Part shown: positions 3,266-38,997 of the stretch, piece after piece
Layout of the letters: every line of letters begins with the position of its first letter
Numbering within the stretch: position 1 is the stretch's first letter
Source of the DNA: Naegleria gruberi
Taxonomy: Eukaryota
Strand: one strand, 5' to 3'
Length of the DNA stretch: 64,000 bases
NCBI GenBank assembly: GCA_000004985.1
Contig: GG738851.1
Program-made: the position numbers and the translations under genes
Notes under the pieces: generated by a model
Told to the model about the DNA's origin: nothing
The model's input: only the letters and a program-made list of their open reading frames with translations
The model's database searches: none

Positions 3266-4339
3266 ATGAGTTGTAATAAGCATAATATTGAGGACAACAC
3301 AAATTCTCCTTCAAATTTAGTTTGGCAATCTATTACAAATACCTGCTCCGATACAGAGAATTTACCATCGGGAGGGGGTATTGCTCATTGTTGTGTCGAT
3401 CATGAGAGAGTGGCTTTTTTCGGAGGGTTGGGATTGAGGCGATATAATGAATTATATATTTTCAATGTCAATACAAATGAATGGAAAAAAGCCTCTCTTG
3501 AAAATGCACCATCAAAGAGGTGTAAAAGTTCAATGTGTTGCTACATAACTGGAAACAAGCATAAATTGATAATATTTGGAGGATGGACGAGTGAGGGAAA
3601 GACAAATGATATGCATGAGTATTGTATTGAGGATGACAAGTGGAAAGAAGTAAAATATGCAAATAATTCAGTTCCTCCTGCAAGAAGTGCTCATCACTGT
3701 GCAATCATTGGAAAACATATGATTATTTATGCAGGAATTGGAGCTAAAAAGTTCGGTGACATGTACAGATTTCATTTGGAAAAGGTATGATTAATTAATA
3801 TTCGATAATCATAACATGTTTGAATTGTGGTTTTAACCAGAGAGAATGGGAAGAAGTAATTCAAGTGAATGCTCCACTGCCAAGAAGTTCCTATGGAGGT
3901 TTAATAGTATTTAACAAGAATCAAAATCTATTGACCTCATGTGGTTTAGGATGTGGAAGATACAATGACACTCTATTATTTGATATTCCATCAAGAACTT
4001 GGAAGCCCTTAACTTATAAAGGAACTATTCCAACAAAGAGAGGTAGACACTCATGTGTTCTTGATGATTCCAACAATTGTGTCTATTTGTGGGGAGGATT
4101 TAGTAAGTTGTTATTATTGCAAAATTATAGTATTAAACTTGGCAGCTGGAACTGAGAGATCCAATGAATGTTTTCGTTTCAATCTCCCAACGTATGAATG
4201 GTCAATGATAAAGCAAACTAACCCTCCAAACAAACGAGAGAACCAATGCCTTTTCATCCTAAACCAAAAACTCTATCTTTATGGTGGCTGGAATGGCTCT
4301 GATTTTTATCATGATATGTTCTGTGCAAATCTAGTATAA
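3266..4339 (+). CDS. Kelch-repeat (galactose-oxidase-like beta-propeller) protein; exons 3266-3784, 3841-4102 and 4146-4339
   Basis: Kelch motifs recur: FGGLG, IIFGGW, LWGGF and LYLYGGWNG, each followed by a conserved W/Y. Donors are aag|gtatga at 3785 and a|gtaagt at 4103. Acceptors end at 3840 and 4145. Frames are consistent across the junctions. Confidence 0.6.
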
Positions 4340-4764
4340 AGATCAAGTCTACAGTTTATTGAATGGATTGTGAAAGTTTGGACTTTTTTTCAAATTTTAT
4401 ACCAAAAGGTTCACAAGACCTTAAAAAACCACAACAAGTACCAATAAGGCTACATAACAGAGTTTCTCTCGAACGTTTTTGGCGCGGTTTTTTTCTTACG
4501 CTTGTTGGTTTTTCTTCTTCAAAAAAGTAACTCGACAGGTGGTGTTCCTTCATCAACGAAAGCCTTAAAGCAAAGTTTCAACTTTTATCACACAACACGG
4601 ATAGGAAGTTCAACATCAAGAATATTGGAAAACCACCATTTTGTTTTCAAAGCTTAGGTGCCTTCCATTGTGAATATTACAAAATAGACTTGTTGTTTTT
4701 ATAGTAATTTTAAACAATTATTATTACCACTTATTTCAACATCATCCGAGCCTAGTAGAACACA

Positions 4765-7700
4765 ATGAACAACTCAGAGAGAAGGAGCATTGAAATGATG
4801 AATTATAATCTTGGCCCTCGTACTGGACCAACGATGCCTCCACCCTCTCCCAATTCTGTCAGAGCATTAAGGAGAGGTTCTCTGGATCCATCTCTAGCAG
4901 GACGACTTCCAAAATCTGCCTCAAGAAACAGTATTCAAGACCCAGAAGCATCACTCTTCGATAAGGATGACAATCAATCCTCCTTGTCGAAAAGCACCAA
5001 GTCAAACCCTTCCGATCCAGTAACAAATTCATCAGTAATGCAAAAATTTGAACATGCCATCTTTACTTTTATTTACTCACTAAGGCCCGAAGTTCCAATG
5101 CATGGAGCCTTATCATTTTTCATTCATATTTTGATTATATTTCAATCTCTTAGTATAGGATCACCGATAGATTTAAATTGGGGATTGTATGGTACTTGGA
5201 TTGTTAGTATAATAGCCATTTGTCGGAGTTATGGATTTCAGTTTATGAATTATGAAGCATTTATTGCCTTAGCAATTATTGTCTTCCTCACGCAAATAGC
5301 AGTATGCATTGTCATTTATATGACATTTAAGGCCCAACAAGTCGGAAGTAGATACTGGGATAAGATCAAAACAGCTGCAAGGGTAATGTTTGCAATAATC
5401 TTTTTCATGGCCATACCAACAACCTATGGTTTAATGTTGGGGTTTTGGGAGTGTGACTATTCCGCAACTGTGCCCTTAAATGAAACTCCCACCTATGTTC
5501 TTGTCAACTTTCCAACAGTAGGATGTTGGTCTGGATTGAATGGCGCATTTGCAGTCTTGTCAGTAATCTTTCTCATTATTCAAACTGTCTTGGTTGCCTG
5601 TTCGATAGCAATCTTTATTAACATTAACATCAAGACAAGGGATTTATTTGTGTTAGACAACCCTTACATTATAATAATCATTATGGCATCTAATCAAATT
5701 TATCTAATTGTTTCCCAAGTCATTCCTGCTTCAATAATTTTCGTTAGACCTATTATTTATTTGGCCTTTGCAGTATTGTTTCTTGCCGTGCTATTTTGGA
5801 TGCAACCTTTCATTCGAAGAGGAACTAATGTTGTTTATGGTGGAGTGGGATTTGCAAGATTAGCTATTGGAGGTGTATCAATCGCCACAGCTCTGGTAAA
5901 TCAAACAAATGAATGGGGACTCGGTCTTGGACTAGTTGGTGCTCTTGTGGGAGGAAGTGCTGTTCTTTTTTCTATTGGTTTAGTGGTGACCGACATTTAC
6001 ACAAGGTACATGCAGCATAAAGGAAGAAAAATTCTTCAAGAATGTGTCCAAAAGAGATCATTTAATACCTTGACAGATTCCGACCATTATTTTGTCAATA
6101 TATTTGTCAGATATGCAATGAAAGGAAAAGAAGCTGATATAGACCTTGCAGATTCATTTACCAAGTTAGCCATGTCACAAAGATTAGAAATTAATGCCAC
6201 AAGTATGATAACTTGCGCATTATTCATCAAGTTTATTCTCACTACTAGTTCAGTAACTCTTGCCTTAACATTGGTACAAAAATCTCAAAAGAAAGGTGAT
6301 AACTTTTTTTTGAGATTCATAATCTTTCTCAGAGTGAGAGAAGTCGAAAAGGCTTCATCAATGGGGAGAAACAATTTTCAATTGGATCACATTATGTCGA
6401 GTGTAAAAAAAAAGTTGGAACTTTCAAGGGAGCTACAAGTTCTCTTTTGGAAAAATGTCACCATGGAACAAACAAATGACGAAAAGCTTTATAACATTGT
6501 CAAAGAAATACAAGAATTGAGTGAAGAATGTTCCATTATTTTCAGCAATTTGCTATCAAATTATGCTACTGATGTGGTATGTTGTTATTTTGTGTGATTT
6601 TTATAAGTGTCTTCAGACTGTACTGCGAGCATATGCTGCCTTCCTTGAAGATTTCCTTTTTGATAACATGGCAGCTGCTGAACTTTTGGAGGAGGCTAGT
6701 ATTATAGAAGAGGAAAACTTTAAAAAGGCTTCTCGAAATTTGGCTAGTAAAAGACCTAGTATCACTGGAAGTATTGGTCCTAAGAGGTCAATTTATGAAT
6801 CTGATCTGAAAATTTCCCTTAGTAGAGGAGGATCACAAGAAGATCTGAATGCTATGAATTTTGAATCTGTTAGTAATGAAGATAGAGAAGGTGCACAACA
6901 AAATGTTTTTAGGAGCGCTGTCAATAAGAAGGAGGAGCACCAATTTCTTTATATTTTCATTGCATCTCTTGGATTTGTTGGAATCACCTTTATAATAGTG
7001 GTGTTAGTATTGGGTTTAGTCATTTCTCAAACCAGCAGCAAGAATATTACTCTCGTTGAGAAATCTTGCTCAATATCTTCGTGTAAGTTTGTGTTTTTAT
7101 TGTAAATTCTAATGATATTAGTACCTTATCTTGTGTTGTCCGATATTAGAAGAATTCAGTCAATGATGAGAACATCATCCAACAAAACATATGATTCCTT
7201 CATGACCAACCATAAAGAAAGATTAACTGAAGCACTTGATAAGCTTGAGGTTGTAGAAACATTCCTTAAGGATTCCATTTTCACTGAAACAATGATGGAA
7301 CACTTTGTCAAGCTCAGCTCAAATATTTTAGTACCAATCATGCAAATTAACTATTCCGAGCCCCTTCTGTACTCTTCCAAGAATGCTTCTGTTGCTGATT
7401 TAGTATCAGTATTTCAGTCAACATCTCAAAAGTACTTCGACCATGGAATAGATCATTACAATGTTACCCGTGACAGTTTTGATTTCCTTCTAATTTGTAA
7501 GTTTTACTGAACTATTGTTTATAACAAACTCAAGGGAATAACCGACTTGATTTTACTCAATCGTTTGAGAAATTTTGCTCTAAATTGATAGCAGATTCTG
7601 AGAGTCAAATTTATTCCTTCAGAATTGTCTTCATTGTTGTTATATCTTCATTGGCTTTTGTTTTTGCGTTATATGTAGTTGTGTATATTATTGTAATTGT

Positions 7701-10282
7701 TAGGCATTCAACTATTCTTGACAAGACATTGAATATTTTCAAAAAGATTCCAAAAGAAGAGAGTTTGAAAGCAATCCATAAACTTGAAACCAACAGCAAT
7801 AAGATTATAACCCCTAAAGAACATTTTGTCACTCCAAAGAAGGTCATGTTAGTAATGGTAGTTTTGAGTTTATTTTTAACCTGTTTAGGAGCTGCTTTGA
7901 TTGTGTATGAAAGTGTATCCTTTATTGAGGATGGTATGTTTGTTATGCAGAAAGTCAAGACAGGAAATACCTTCCTGCAAACCCTACAAAGAACAAAGTT
8001 CAAGATCTTGGAATTACTGATGACTGATTACGCAGAACTTGGAGTCTCTAGGGATCAATTTCATGGTGAAATTAAGCAACATATATCTGATTTGTTTGTT
8101 TCATGGAATTCCTTCAGATATGGTGATGAATCTAATGGGTTTCATCCAATTACTGGTCTTTTAACAGAAGTGGATAAATCAGTTTCAGAACAAAAGAATT
8201 GTACAGCAAACGATTTTGCTTGTTATTCGCTTGATGATTTGGTTTTAATATTCCAAAATGCAGAAAAAGTTAACGACAACATTTATCAACAGATTTACTC
8301 CATACAATCTCTTTTGGATCAGTATTCTGTTATTTTCAATGCAGCAATAGCTACAGATTCAAAGACAGACGGTGTTATTGCGAGCTATGTCAGCTATTTC
8401 ACAACCAAAACGAATATTTTAACTTCTGTTTTCGCTCCCGTATCCTCCATTCTGCTACTATTCTTTGTTTACATCATTTACAGTGCGATGAACGGATTTT
8501 CAAACGAAGTGCATCAAATCAGAACAATGCTCAATCACTTACCCTGGGAAATTCTCGATTCCAACTCTGTTTTACATGCCTATGTCATTAATTATTCACT
8601 CTCCGTTGGAAACGATAGAGACTCAAAGAAATCTAATGATAATGCCTCAAAAGAAAAAGCTATTCTTGAGGCAGCTGTAGAGGGAGCAGTCATTTGTTCA
8701 ACTTATGGTAATATTAATATTTTCAACGAGTCTGCACAAAGAATGTTTGGCTACAGAGCAGATGAGGTCATTGGTACTCAGCTCTCTGATCTTTTCTCAT
8801 CAGAAACTAGATCAAAGGTTGACTCTGTAGTTTCTAATGCAATTTCATCAACCTCTTCCAAGGGTGAGACCATTCCTCTTATTGGACTTAGAAAAAACAA
8901 GACACAATTCGCAGCAGTGATTAATATTTCAGTAGCCATTCTTGGTGATGACAAGAAGGTCATCACTTGTTTTATTAAGGATCAAACAAATGAAAAAAAG
9001 AGAGATATTGAACTCGCTGAAGAAAAGAAAAAGTCTGAAGCTCTTTTACTAAATATTTTACCAGAAAGTGTCGCTCATCGTTTACAGTCGGGTGAAACGT
9101 TCATTGCAGACAAGATTGAGGATTGCACTTGCTTGTTTAGTGACATTGTTGATTTCAATCTCGTAGCTGCTCAAATGAGTGCCACCGATGTGGTTCAAAT
9201 GTTGAACATGATTATCAATGGTTATGATTCCCTTATTCCAAGATATAATTTGGAAAAGATTAAAACTATTGGTGAAAAATATTTTTGTGTTGGTGGCCTT
9301 CCAACCCATGGTCAACCATCAACTGACCATGTTGAAGAGGTACTTGGCTTTGCCATGGACATTTTCAGCATTATGCACCACTACAATATGGAATTTGGAA
9401 GAAAGTTGAATGTAAAAGTTGGTATTCATTCTGGAGGTTTAGTTGCAGGTGTAATTGGCACACTCAAATTCGCGTATGATGTAAGTTGTTATTGTGTCTG
9501 TAATTGTTCTTAATGAAATTAAGGTTTGGGGAGATGTTATCAATGTTGCAAGTAGAATGGAGTCCACTTGCCATCCAGGAAGAATTCAAGTAACCAAGGA
9601 GACATTTTCAAGACTCAATCATAAATATGAATTCGAGGAAAGGCGAGATGTTTTTGCTAAAGGTAAAGGATTGATGACAACATATCTTCTCAACAAGATT
9701 TATCACCAAGATCCGCTTTCTCTTGAAGTTACTATTGATAGATCAGATATTGAAATGGCTGTAAATCAAGCAAATCAAGGAGGTCCTAAGTTCACTGATT
9801 TGATTTCGAACGCAAGTCAAGATATTCATTCAGAGACTGACTCTCACCCTCAACAGGAAATGGCAATAGAAGATGGGCGTTTAGCTGTTGCACCAATTGC
9901 AGGCTCAAGAAGAGTAAGATCCCAAAGTGTTAACAGCAATTACAGTAATTTTAGTTATAACAGTGTTAGTGAACAAAACAATGACAGTCTCAGACCACCA
10001 ACTTTGCTTACTGGTTCACCAAACCAAGCTTCTCCTCAATCTACGTTAATGTCCTCACCAAGAATAGATGTTTTACGTTTCAAAAACAATCCTAATAGAT
10101 ACAGTGTCAGTGCTTCGATCACTAGTTTCTTCAGTAACCAGGCAGCTCTCGATCCAGCGGTGCAACATCACGACCAGTTGGAAACTGCAAGTCATCACTC
10201 AATCCACTCACATCACTCTCACTTCTCTCCTCGAAGGAAACTGTTACCAGTCCCTGAACATGATGAAATATGTGAGCATTAA
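4765..10282 (+). CDS. Large polytopic membrane protein with a PAS domain and a class III nucleotidyl (adenylyl-type) cyclase catalytic domain; exons 4765-6576, 6617-7082, 7122-7496, 7535-9480 and 9524-10282
   Basis: Five ORF-track segments join in frame through GTATGT/GTAAGT donors and AG acceptors, and none carries a stop before its donor. The N-terminal region holds about 10 hydrophobic helices. Two more TM helices start the 7585 exon. A PAS-like segment reads AILEAAVEGAVICSTYGNINIFNESAQRMFGYRADEVIGTQLSDLF. Cyclase motifs are FSDIVDFN, KIKTIGEKYF, GIHSGGLVAGVIG and YDVWGDVINVASRMES. Confidence 0.6.
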
Positions 10283-10481
10283 GATATAAAATCTCCGATT
10301 TTTCAGCATTGCTCTATAATTTATTGTCTGAAACTCTCCACTATTCTCTCAGAATCGTTTCACCAGTTTCCCTCCTTTTTTCAATCTTAAAAACGTTAAC
10401 TCATCACGGAGTCGCCCTTATGGATATCCAGAAAATTTCAAAGAAGGATGTGAAATCTTGTAAAAATTTCATTTAAAAAAA

Positions 10482-12503
10482 ATGCTGTACAACCAACCAG
10501 TTATTCTTCACTTGATTGACCTTTATATTCCTCCGCTAAATATCGAGCACGATCATCATCAGATGGTCGGAAATTATCATCAACATGTTGAGGAAAATTT
10601 AGAAAGATCATCCAGCCTCTTCTTACTCCTTCAAAAACGAATGCACAACAAACAAGAAAAACGAACAAAATTTCTGAATAGTTATCTTGATGTTTACTAC
10701 TCGGTAGAATTTCAACCGTGTGCCATTCTAGAGGAAATCGAGGATAGGAGAATTACTAGCGATAGAGAATTGATGATGCGAGCAGTGAAAGCAGACGGAC
10801 TTGCTCTTCAATACTACACTGGAACATTTCAGTGCAATAGTTGTGAGAGTGTTGTGGATGATGAATTGGTGGCAGAAGCTGTAAAATCCAATGGAATGTC
10901 GATTCGGTTTATGTTGGCAGATGACCCACAACGTTTAATTTCAAAAGAAATTTTGAGAAAGGCCATAGAGGAGGATGGTTTGATAGCTTCGTTTGGTAAT
11001 GTTTGGTCTTCTCTTTCAGATGAAGAAAAAATCTTGGCTGCTTCCACTAATGGAAATATATTGGTTTCTGACCAACTTTATGGAATACTTGCTCCAAAAC
11101 AAGTTGCCACAGTTGGTCTGATTGACTCTCCTTATGATTTCTGTAGAGAATTTCAGACAGAAGATAAGGAAGTTATTGAGTATGTGATTAAATGCTATGG
11201 AGCTGCCCTTGAAGAAATTGATGATGAGTTACTTTGTGAACCTTTATCATTGGATGTTTTGAAAGAGGGATTTTCACAATATCCAGAAGCTCTACCACAT
11301 TTATTTTGGAACCTGAGAAGGAGTATGGATGAAATATTTGAGATTGTAAGGGAAGGATTGAAGAGCTATAACGATGTGCTTGATGAGGACATTGGACAAG
11401 GATTTTTCACAAAAGAACAATTCACTGAATTGTTGAAATATTCTGGTTATATTATTTATGATTACTTTTATACGACTGATAGGGAAATGGCACTAGTTGC
11501 TGTCACAAATTGTGGAGAAGTTTTAGGTGTACTACCTGAATTTGCTAACGACAAGGAAATAGTTTTGGCTGCTGTTCAACAAGATGCCTACTCGATATTA
11601 TATGGAACAGAGGCATTGATTTATAATAGAGACTTTATTTTGGAGTGTGTGAAAATAAGTGGTGAGGTTTTGGATTATATAGATATGGATTTCGATGAGG
11701 ATTATGAAATTATTCTTGAAGCTGTACAGAATTATGGAGATGCAATAGGAATTACATCCCAAGAGTTGAGAAGGAATAAGGAGATTATCACTGCTGCCCT
11801 TTCAAATAATGGATTATCATTAGGTTATCTGGATGAAGATTTACAAGATGACAAATCAATAGTATTACTTGCTGTTTCTAATAATGGTCTTGCTCTCGAA
11901 TACGCCTCGGATAGGCTACAGAATGATAAGGAAGTTGTAATGGTTGCTGTTTCAAATATGCCAATCTCTTTGCAGTATGCTAGTGAAGCTCTTCGCTCTG
12001 ACATGGAGGTTATTCTTCGTGTTGTGAGTTTGGATTATCATGCTCTGGAACTTGCTTCAGAACAAGCAAGAAACAATAGAGATATCGTTATGGAATGTGT
12101 AAAGATATGTGGTCTTTGCCTTTTGAATGCCTCAGATGAACTGAAAAATGATAGAGAAATTGTTTTGCAAGCTGTGTCGCAAAATGGATTAGCTCTCAAA
12201 TATGCCACTACACTCGATGAAGAAATAGCAATTACAGCTTTACAAAACAATTCCACAGTTTTTAACAAGCTGCCCAATCATTTAAAAAGAATAAGGAAAA
12301 TTGCTAAATTAGCTAAGGATGAATCTGACACGTATTGGGAGGCTTGGATTGATTACTGGGGAAAGAGAAGTGAAGTATTCGATATAGAGAGACCTAAGAG
12401 AAAAAGACTAATTTATGGAGATTGTGAGGAAGAAGACAATGAAGAAGAGAATGATATTCAAGACATAGAAGAAAGAGAAAGGAAAAAGTTAAAAGATGAA
12501 TAA
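10482..12503 (+). CDS. DUF4116-like tandem-repeat protein with an acidic/basic C-terminal tail
   Basis: A single 673-aa ORF. A roughly 30-aa unit recurs, for example NKEIITAALSNNGLSLGYLDEDLQDDKSIVLLAVSNNGLALEYASDRLQNDKEVVMVAVS. The repeat consensus is D.E.VL.AV..NG.AL.YAS..L..DK. Confidence 0.5.
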   Translation: MLYNQPVILHLIDLYIPPLNIEHDHHQMVGNYHQHVEENLERSSSLFLLLQKRMHNKQEKRTKFLNSYLDVYYSVEFQPCAILEEIEDRRITSDRELMMRAVKADGLALQYYTGTFQCNSCESVVDDELVAEAVKSNGMSIRFMLADDPQRLISKEILRKAIEEDGLIASFGNVWSSLSDEEKILAASTNGNILVSDQLYGILAPKQVATVGLIDSPYDFCREFQTEDKEVIEYVIKCYGAALEEIDDELLCEPLSLDVLKEGFSQYPEALPHLFWNLRRSMDEIFEIVREGLKSYNDVLDEDIGQGFFTKEQFTELLKYSGYIIYDYFYTTDREMALVAVTNCGEVLGVLPEFANDKEIVLAAVQQDAYSILYGTEALIYNRDFILECVKISGEVLDYIDMDFDEDYEIILEAVQNYGDAIGITSQELRRNKEIITAALSNNGLSLGYLDEDLQDDKSIVLLAVSNNGLALEYASDRLQNDKEVVMVAVSNMPISLQYASEALRSDMEVILRVVSLDYHALELASEQARNNRDIVMECVKICGLCLLNASDELKNDREIVLQAVSQNGLALKYATTLDEEIAITALQNNSTVFNKLPNHLKRIRKIAKLAKDESDTYWEAWIDYWGKRSEVFDIERPKRKRLIYGDCEEEDNEEENDIQDIEERERKKLKDE

Positions 12504-37088: not shown

Positions 37089-37159
37089 CGGCGTATGATG
37101 CAGAGGTAGCATGTTGGACTCTGAATCCAAATACGCAGGTTCGATTCCTGCTACGCTGG
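37089..37159 (+). tRNA. tRNA-Gln (anticodon CUG)
   Basis: I folded it by hand. The acceptor stem is CGGCGTA/TACGCTG. The D arm is ATGC-AGAGGTA-GCAT. The anticodon arm is TTGGA-CTCTGAA-TCCAA. The T arm is GCAGG-TTCGATT-CCTGC, and the discriminator is G. Confidence 0.6.
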
Positions 37160-38924: not shown

Positions 38925-38997
38925 GCTGGCGTAGCTCAGTCGGTAGAGCGTTGGTCTAATAAGCCATTGGTCGCCGGTTCGATCCCGTCCGTCAGCA
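38925..38997 (+). tRNA. tRNA-Ile (anticodon AAU)
   Basis: The acceptor stem GCTGGCG/CGTCAGC is perfect, with one G-U pair. The D arm is GCTC-AGTCGGTA-GAGC. The anticodon loop CTAATAA gives anticodon AAT. The T loop is TTCGATC. There is one mismatch in the anticodon stem and one in the T stem. Confidence 0.55.

Follow-up and report, generated by a model that had tools for sequence, protein, structure and literature searches.

The 64,000-nucleotide stretch of Naegleria gruberi DNA analysed here (contig GG738851.1; "the window") carries, at positions 4765-10282 of the plus strand, a gene for a large membrane protein that combines a PAS domain with a lone class III cyclase domain. We propose that an adenylyl cyclase heterodimer takes its C2-like subunit from this gene and its other subunit from a sister clade, and put the probability of this reading at roughly 55%. 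The two clades, referred to as EK and TK, are altered at complementary catalytic positions. In the EK clade, which includes the window protein, the second metal-binding aspartate and the residue after it are replaced by a Glu-Lys pair, and in the TK clade the aspartate is kept and the transition-state Asn and Arg are replaced by Thr or Ile and by Lys. This complementary clade pattern is what is new; the kind of cyclase, class IIIa, and the family itself, listed in databases as hypothetical proteins, were already known.

Catalytic residues of the cyclase domain

The Pfam profile Guanylate_cyc (PF00211) matches residues 1410-1590 of the window protein with 178.9 bits against a cut-off of 21.9, which places the domain in class III as a subclass IIIa match, with a bit score on par with those of canonical paralogues. 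We aligned the domain, using HMMER, with the solved mammalian cyclases AC5 and AC9, and the catalytic positions are as follows.

9142-9144, plus strand: Asp1421 (codon GAC), the first metal ligand, in CLFSDIVDF; aligned with the FADI motif of the C1 domains of AC5 and AC9
9262-9279, plus strand: Lys1461-Thr-Ile-Gly-Glu1465-Lys1466; the adenine-specifying Lys, Glu in place of the second metal Asp (codon GAA, 9274-9276, in IGEKYF) and Lys in place of Ala
9478-9480, plus strand: Asp1533, in YDVWGD; the last codon of exon 4
9542-9544, 9554-9556 and 9659-9661, plus strand: Asn1540, Arg1544 and Lys1579, all in exon 5, the last of them located in KGKG

The alignment puts Glu1465 exactly at the second metal-binding Asp of C1 (tiGEkYFcv versus ilGDcYYcv), and Lys1461, Asp1533, Asn1540 and Arg1544 on the adenine-specifying and transition-state residues of C2, which lie in EKIKTIG, YDIWG and VNVASRM. 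A reading made earlier from the letters of the DNA (the sequence-only reading) had called the purine-specifying residues adenylyl-type, the Asp of FSDIVDF the first metal ligand and the Glu a substitution at the second metal position; all three calls are borne out, with Asp1421 falling on the first metal Asp of C1 in both mammalian enzymes, and ATP is the predicted substrate. Class IIIa cyclases have two metal-binding aspartates, of which the window protein retains Asp1421 and carries Glu1465 as the second. Its metal- and phosphate-binding half is thus partly eroded, with Asp changed to Glu, a loop Thr to Asn and a loop Gly to Asp, and with the first Asp retained; in orthologues the erosion is more advanced. 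Directly ahead of the domain, EKKKSEALLLNILPESVA forms a helical linker, an element of the cyclase transducer type, which in the alignments corresponds to the segments preceding C1 and C2 in AC5 and AC9.

The same reading had described the catalytic signature as C2-like, which holds in part. The window domain scores higher against mammalian C2 (113.8 bits for AC5 and 109.7 bits for AC9) than against mammalian C1 (94.3 and 94.2 bits), whereas the canonical paralogue P0138 is balanced, with 104.8 bits against C1 and 106.8 bits against C2 of AC9. It departs from a mammalian C2, however, in retaining the first Asp, in having Glu where C2 has Ser, and in lacking a fused C1.

The substitution is rare. 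We surveyed the second-metal position in 127 proteins, made up of 120 listed cyclase matches and seven proteins from the first search, and found Asp in 117 and Glu in one (P0010, from a metagenome); the other nine fell outside the search pattern, and two of these, P0008 and P0009, also carry Glu-Lys. A scan of metagenomes with the EK/TK alignment added no members to either clade; the 80 loci it returned are 33-51% identical and probably bacterial for the most part. Every one of the 80 has Asp at the second-metal position and is canonical at the catalytic positions.

Complementary residue loss in the EK and TK clades

The clades are resolved in a neighbour-joining tree of the PAS-cyclase region. 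In the tree, EK comprises the window protein, the metagenomic locus L003, P0132 of Willaertia magna and P0008 of N. lovaniensis, while TK comprises the metagenomic loci L006 and L005 and P0129 of W. magna. Bootstrap values are 99% for EK, 100% for TK and 87% for the sisterhood of the two, and across the N-terminal bundle, the TPR region and both ectodomain modules, EK and TK members rank as mutual closest relatives.

Outside the window protein, the EK motif (xEKYF) reads QEKYF in P0132, SEKYF in P0008 and GEK/YF in the metagenomic sequences P0010 and P0009/L003. L003 (~2600-2830, ERZ27315067) is the closest orthologue, 52-69% identical by segment; its first metal Asp has become Gly (CLFSGIVDF), and its coding sequence is split between GEK and YF by an intron with no counterpart in the window gene. 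A further N. gruberi protein, P0134, reads QSKYF, with Ser where EK has Glu. The TK group, made up of P0129, L005, L006 and probably P0181 of N. gruberi, keeps GDAYF and has WGE.V(T/I)..(S/N)KME further on; P0181 has GDAYF together with ..TLTIAN... Both P0134 and P0181 are truncated gene models.

We compared individual positions in an alignment of the four EK and three TK sequences with 21 others (family paralogues and related outgroup cyclases).

First metal Asp: EK D, G, D, D; TK D, D, D; others all D
Phosphate-loop Thr: EK N, N, A, K; TK T, T, T; others T in 20, one gap
Gly preceding the second metal ligand: EK G, G, Q, S; TK G, G, G; others all G
Second metal Asp: EK E in all four; TK D in all three; others all D
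Residue after the second metal ligand: EK K in all four; TK A in all three; others A in 19, S in 2
Transition-state Asn: EK N in all four; TK T, T, I; others all N
Transition-state Arg: EK R in all four; TK K in all three; others all R
KGKG: EK intact in all four; TK eroded in two of three; others first K in 20 (R in one), and G, K and G in all

The adenine-specifying Lys and Asp are likewise retained in all four aligned EK sequences. The comparison with mammalian domains runs the same way as the residues: against AC9 C1 and C2, respectively, the EK domains score 94.2 and 109.7 bits (window protein) and 99.3 and 105.4 bits (P0132), and the TK domains 121.1 and 99.5 bits (L006) and 111.3 and 80.3 bits (P0129). 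EK domains lean to C2 and TK domains to C1. The clades also occur together, in W. magna, in N. gruberi (P0134 with P0181), and in the metagenomes ERZ27315067 (L003 with L005) and ERZ929261 (L002 with L006, where L002 is a contig nearly identical to the window).

The proposed heterodimer and its alternatives

Class III active sites span the dimer interface, where one subunit provides the aspartates that bind metal, and the other the base-specifying and transition-state residues (PMC4174876). In mammalian transmembrane adenylyl cyclases, this labour is split between C1 and C2 in the way proposed here, the two metal Asp residues coming from one domain and Lys, Asp, Asn and Arg from the other. Since the sister EK and TK paralogues have eroded in a complementary manner, as have C1 and C2, the pattern argues for a heterodimer in which one site is competent and the other degenerate. 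The closest precedent, with separate subunits, is the chytrid receptor cyclase NeoR, in which T455 and K459 replace NxxxR; NeoR is inactive alone and donates the metal Asp residues to the sole active site of the NeoR/RGC1 or NeoR/RGC2 dimer (PMC12264004). Thr and Lys in place of NxxxR is exactly the TK-clade pattern. It is on the strength of this precedent, together with the complementary erosion of EK and TK, that we assign the window protein as a probable C2-like subunit. The sequence-only reading had held that an enzyme with a single cyclase domain must homodimerise; a sister clade that carries the complementary defect and co-occurs with EK points instead to a heterodimer.

We infer from the clade pattern that heterodimerisation would leave a single active site and a Glu-Lys pseudo-site with a regulatory role. 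In the competent site, the window protein would supply Lys1461 and Asp1533 for recognition of adenine, and Asn1540, Arg1544 and Lys1579 for the transition state and phosphate, while a TK-clade partner of like architecture, encoded elsewhere in the genome, would supply both metal-binding aspartates and the phosphate-loop Thr. The reciprocal site would combine Asp1421, Glu1465 and Lys1466 of the window protein with the Thr or Ile and the Lys of the partner; it would be degenerate and may be regulatory, in analogy to the forskolin site of the mammalian cyclases and the non-catalytic site of chytrid NeoR/RGC. Signals received at the helical ectodomains or in the membrane, and possibly a ligand of the PAS domain, could then be relayed through the linker helices to control synthesis of cyclic AMP (cAMP).

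Several points weigh against this proposal. The 64-kb window holds no other cyclase gene, and the case for a partner in the same genome comes down to L006, found in the same metagenome sample as a contig 99.26% identical to the window. The match list contains no EK orthologue from N. fowleri, and the orthologue of N. lovaniensis has an apparent frameshift. The clades are small (4-6 EK and 3-4 TK sequences), three of their members (L003, L005 and L006) were rebuilt from tblastn segments, and neighbour-joining was the one tree method applied. Asp1421 is retained and Glu is itself a competent carboxylate ligand, and the Glu-Lys pair does not drift but is strictly the same in five EK sequences, so a modified metal site may still function, and homodimers may be active. 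Finally, RGC1 of chytrids, a heterodimer subunit, can be active as a homodimer too.

Some of these points feed a different explanation, namely that the window protein is a self-sufficient homodimeric adenylyl cyclase with two symmetric sites, in which Glu1465 serves as a metal ligand, perhaps with a preference for Mn2+ over Mg2+ or a lower turnover. All the remaining catalytic residues are indeed on one chain, and Glu-Lys is kept in five EK sequences whose cyclase domains share 54-67% identity, so the position apparently still matters. The related GGDEF domains accept either Asp or Glu within their GG(D/E)EF motif, which also counts in favour of a homodimer. However, the metal and phosphate half drifts in EK and nowhere else, with the loop Thr lost in all four sequences and the Gly before Glu lost in two of four, the first Asp is Gly in L003, and the Glu is Ser in N. 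gruberi P0134. A homodimer also gives no account of why the sister clade lost precisely the complementary Asn and Arg. We therefore regard it as unlikely, at about half the weight given to the heterodimer; it stays alive because the strict conservation of Glu-Lys amid drifting neighbours is not fully explained by the proposed division of labour.

The same substitutions can be read more radically, as the marks of an inert pseudo-cyclase whose domain has turned into a dimerisation, scaffold or nucleotide-binding regulatory module. Consistent with this are the substituted metal ligand, the missing first Asp of L003, the Ser of P0134 and the apparent frameshift in the N. lovaniensis copy. Against it, Lys, Asp, Asn, Arg and KGKG are kept in all four aligned EK sequences at 54-67% overall identity, which argues for continued selection on the residues related to catalysis, and the Guanylate_cyc score equals that of canonical paralogues. 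An inert domain is accordingly the less probable of these two alternatives, and an improbable one.

Returning to the heterodimer, we suggest more tentatively, at odds slightly short of even, that heterolobosean amoebae independently evolved an obligate two-gene receptor cyclase equivalent to C1/C2, with the Glu-Lys pseudo-site as an allosteric element. Here EK would be the C2-like and TK the C1-like or NeoR-like subunit, each with 12 transmembrane (TM) helices, two helical ectodomains, a TmcB-type TPR region and a PAS domain. The independence of the asymmetry follows from the tree, which places the EK/TK split inside the heterolobosean family. If true, this would be a further independent origin of cyclase asymmetry, making the arrangement a recurrent evolutionary solution, here reached when sister genes in a deep-branching lineage of eukaryotes lost complementary residues. 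The EK/TK pair would also provide a natural system whose halves can be expressed separately.

Known cyclases share some of these features. Like the window protein, AC5 and AC9 have the class IIIa fold after a helical linker and 12 TM helices per catalytic unit, and the TK sisters have VTLA(S/N)KME where mammalian C1 has VTLANHME. Unlike in the mammalian enzymes, each half would have a gene of its own and would carry, besides its 12 TM helices, a TPR region, two ectodomains and a PAS domain, and regulation by G proteins or forskolin is unsupported for the window protein. The chytrid system of NeoR with RGC1 or RGC2 also consists of separate membrane-receptor cyclase subunits in a protist-grade eukaryote, with one active and one regulatory site. 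These are, however, guanylyl cyclases with rhodopsin sensors, and RGC1 and RGC2 retain both metal aspartates, while the EK clade has that half naturally altered. The Mycobacterium tuberculosis cyclase Rv1625c/Cya (E ~1e-48), one of the homodimeric class IIIa membrane cyclases, resembles the window protein in having one cyclase domain per chain with all the catalytic residue types, and its membrane anchor has been proposed as a receptor, as we propose for the window protein. It differs in having six TM helices and the canonical Asp/Asp pair, in being a homodimer, and in lacking PAS, TPR and ectodomains.

Gene structure, domain organization and family

The locus is, by splice reconstruction, a real single five-exon gene, whose predicted product is a membrane PAS-cyclase of 1785 amino acids, where about 1750 had been estimated before. 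The features below combine open reading frames and splice reconstruction with hydropathy and an AlphaFold2 (AF2) model.

4765-6576, plus strand: exon 1, residues 1-604; Ser/Pro-rich N-terminal tail (4765-5100), bundle of ~8 TM helices (5101-6000) and onset of the cytosolic helical/TPR region
6577-6616, plus strand: intron 1, 40 nt, GTATGT..CAG; the junction rebuilds SNYATDV/TVLRAYAAF, conserved in P0001
6617-7082, plus strand: exon 2; remainder of the TPR region of TmcB type, a linker rich in acidic residues and Ser, TM9 (6938-7042) and onset of extracellular region 1
7083-7121, plus strand: intron 2, 39 nt, GTAAGT..TAG, with an in-frame stop
7122-7496, plus strand: exon 3; bulk of extracellular region 1 (entire region 7043-7602), with N-glycosylation sequons and conserved Cys
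7497-7534, plus strand: intron 3, 38 nt, GTAAGT..AAG, splitting a Trp codon; the conserved F...W.NR motif is rebuilt
7535-9480, plus strand: exon 4; TM10 (7603-7722), cytosolic loop, TM11 (7822-7926), predicted extracellular four-helix bundle (7927-8409), TM12 (8410-8502), PAS domain (8659-8988), the helical linker (8989-9108) and the cyclase domain's first two-thirds
9481-9523, plus strand: intron 4, 43 nt, GTAAGT..AAG, between FAYD and VWGD; homologues are interrupted at or beside the same spot (P0001, L005)
9524-10282, plus strand: exon 5; remaining cyclase domain (to 9694), low-complexity Ser/Asn/Gln/His tail and stop codon

Splicing yields one uninterrupted frame of 5358 nt (1785 codons) and rebuilds, at all four junctions, motifs conserved in homologues: SNYATDV/TVLRAYAAF, C.....P...L...R..Q, F...W.NR.........FC and FAYD/VWGD. 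The interruption at or beside YD/(V/L)WGD lies at 9481-9523 in the window gene, ~5690-5740 in the TK-clade locus L005 and ~9746-9790 in L001 (the distant paralogue P0001), which suggests that an intron at this site may be old in the family. The metagenome contig L002 matches window positions 4278-6967 with 99.26% nucleotide identity and shares intron 1. This match to ERZ929261 (PRJEB11402) covers 2691 nt, and because the identity extends through intergenic DNA, the sample contains the same or a nearly identical organism; two metagenomes hold this organism or a close relative.

A gene-model artefact, in which the membrane region and the PAS-cyclase would be separate genes or the locus a pseudogene, would find support in the public annotation of the N. 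lovaniensis orthologue as two genes of 902 and 596 amino acids. That split (L004 9486-10100, PYSW02000014.1) corresponds to a frame shift inside a conserved TM helix, ..KHVIVITCLILV.. in one part and ..VVVITCLGLILYDG.. in the other, and is thereby accounted for; the shift is either an assembly error or the mark of a pseudogene. In the window, the four canonical GT..AG introns of 38-43 nt restore one frame with conserved motifs at each junction, and for dozens of family homologues the annotation or assembly gives one co-linear protein. Since full-length homologues of 1565-1714 amino acids, each a single protein, align co-linearly over the whole length, separate membrane and cyclase genes are very unlikely, and an artefact of either kind is hardly credible. 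The joining of the five segments into one gene, already put forward from the open reading frames, is upheld.

Pfam places TPR_TmcB at residues 541-638, PAS_9/PAS at 1260-1369 and Guanylate_cyc at 1410-1590. The TPR_TmcB match (PF25474, 41.1 bits against a cut-off of 27; 6385-6718) spans intron 1. Hydropathy shows ~8 TM segments within residues 113-412 and four more at 712-746, 908-947, 981-1015 and 1177-1207. Pfam and hydropathy thus agree with the earlier picture of one protein in which a polytopic membrane region is combined with PAS and a lone class III cyclase domain, and correct its details: instead of about ten N-terminal helices, hydropathy and the AF2 model (predicted local distance difference test score, pLDDT, 89.2) give ~8, at most 9, and in place of a single second TM pair there are four helices. 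The N-terminal ~8-TM bundle has no counterpart among solved structures. The order from N- to C-terminus is a cytosolic tail, the ~8-TM bundle, TPR_TmcB, two TM-ectodomain-TM modules, PAS, helical linker and cyclase.

Because the PAS and cyclase domains are placed in the cytosol, residues 747-907 and 1016-1176 should be extracellular, in agreement with the glycosylation sequons and conserved cysteines found there. The second ectodomain is predicted to form a four-helix bundle that may resemble the sensor domains of bacterial chemoreceptors and histidine kinases (4HB_MCP-like). For a duplication between the two TM-ectodomain-TM modules, profile-profile comparison gives a probability of 34%. The top PDB matches of the PAS domain are FixL (E = 1e-6). 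In the alignment of FixL RSRHDSYIS with RSKVDSVVS of the window PAS, the haem-ligating proximal His of the F-alpha helix is replaced by Val, so haem-based oxygen or redox sensing by this domain was rejected, and the earlier suggestion of a redox-gated cyclase is unsupported.

The TPR_TmcB domain is common to the window protein and the Dictyostelium TmcB family. To our knowledge, TmcB itself has no cyclase domain. The fusion in the window joins a TmcB-type module physically to a cyclase and, if the two-gene arrangement is true, would tie the uncharacterised TmcB membrane/TPR module directly to cAMP synthesis. In Dictyostelium, the tmcB family is reported to have a role in cAMP signalling during sexual development (PMC8516963).

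An exhaustive representative search with the middle region of the window protein recovered its family, with 61 representatives at 50% clustering. Most are 1400-1800 amino acids long, and most share one domain order, with the N-terminal bundle first, TPR_TmcB and the two TM-ectodomain-TM modules next, and PAS and cyclase last. The named members, which belong to W. magna, N. gruberi, N. fowleri and N. lovaniensis, all carry either a hypothetical label or a generic cyclase-domain one; examples with the same domain order as the window protein are W. magna KAL9658648, N. fowleri XP_044558499 and N. lovaniensis XP_044555706, and the nearest named proteins are 34-50% identical to it. The predicted window protein is a member of this family, with P0132 of W. 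magna as its orthologue. Most members have fully canonical catalytic residues, whereas the window protein belongs to the EK subclade. The sequence-only reading had considered the architecture to lie outside the amoebal cyclases it could name; it turns out to be that of a large heterolobosean family already in the databases under hypothetical names. In Naegleria and Willaertia, this large family is wholly uncharacterised, and in literature searches neither this family nor any heterodimeric cyclase turned up for Naegleria and related organisms.

Several public gene models in the family are split or truncated. At the N. fowleri locus L007 (VFQX01000067.1), the public model ends ahead of the cyclase domain, and the late PAS and cyclase region occurs twice in tandem, at 8692-9903 and 10001-11177, with identical translated segments, which reflects a duplication made either in the assembly or, very recently and in tandem, in the genome. 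L007 was considered as an EK/TK orthologue and rejected, being a canonical GDAYF paralogue.

The neighbours of the window gene lie on the same strand. Downstream, 10482-12503 encodes a single-exon protein of 673 amino acids with DUF4116 repeats (309 bits, 7 repeats) and an acidic tail. Upstream, a Kelch-repeat gene at 3266-4339 is spread over several short open reading frame segments, which implies that its introns are short, as they are in the cyclase gene. Across the window, Rfam matches nothing but two tRNA genes on the plus strand, at 37089-37159 and 38925-38997. The G+C content is 31% for the whole window and 36% for the cyclase gene.

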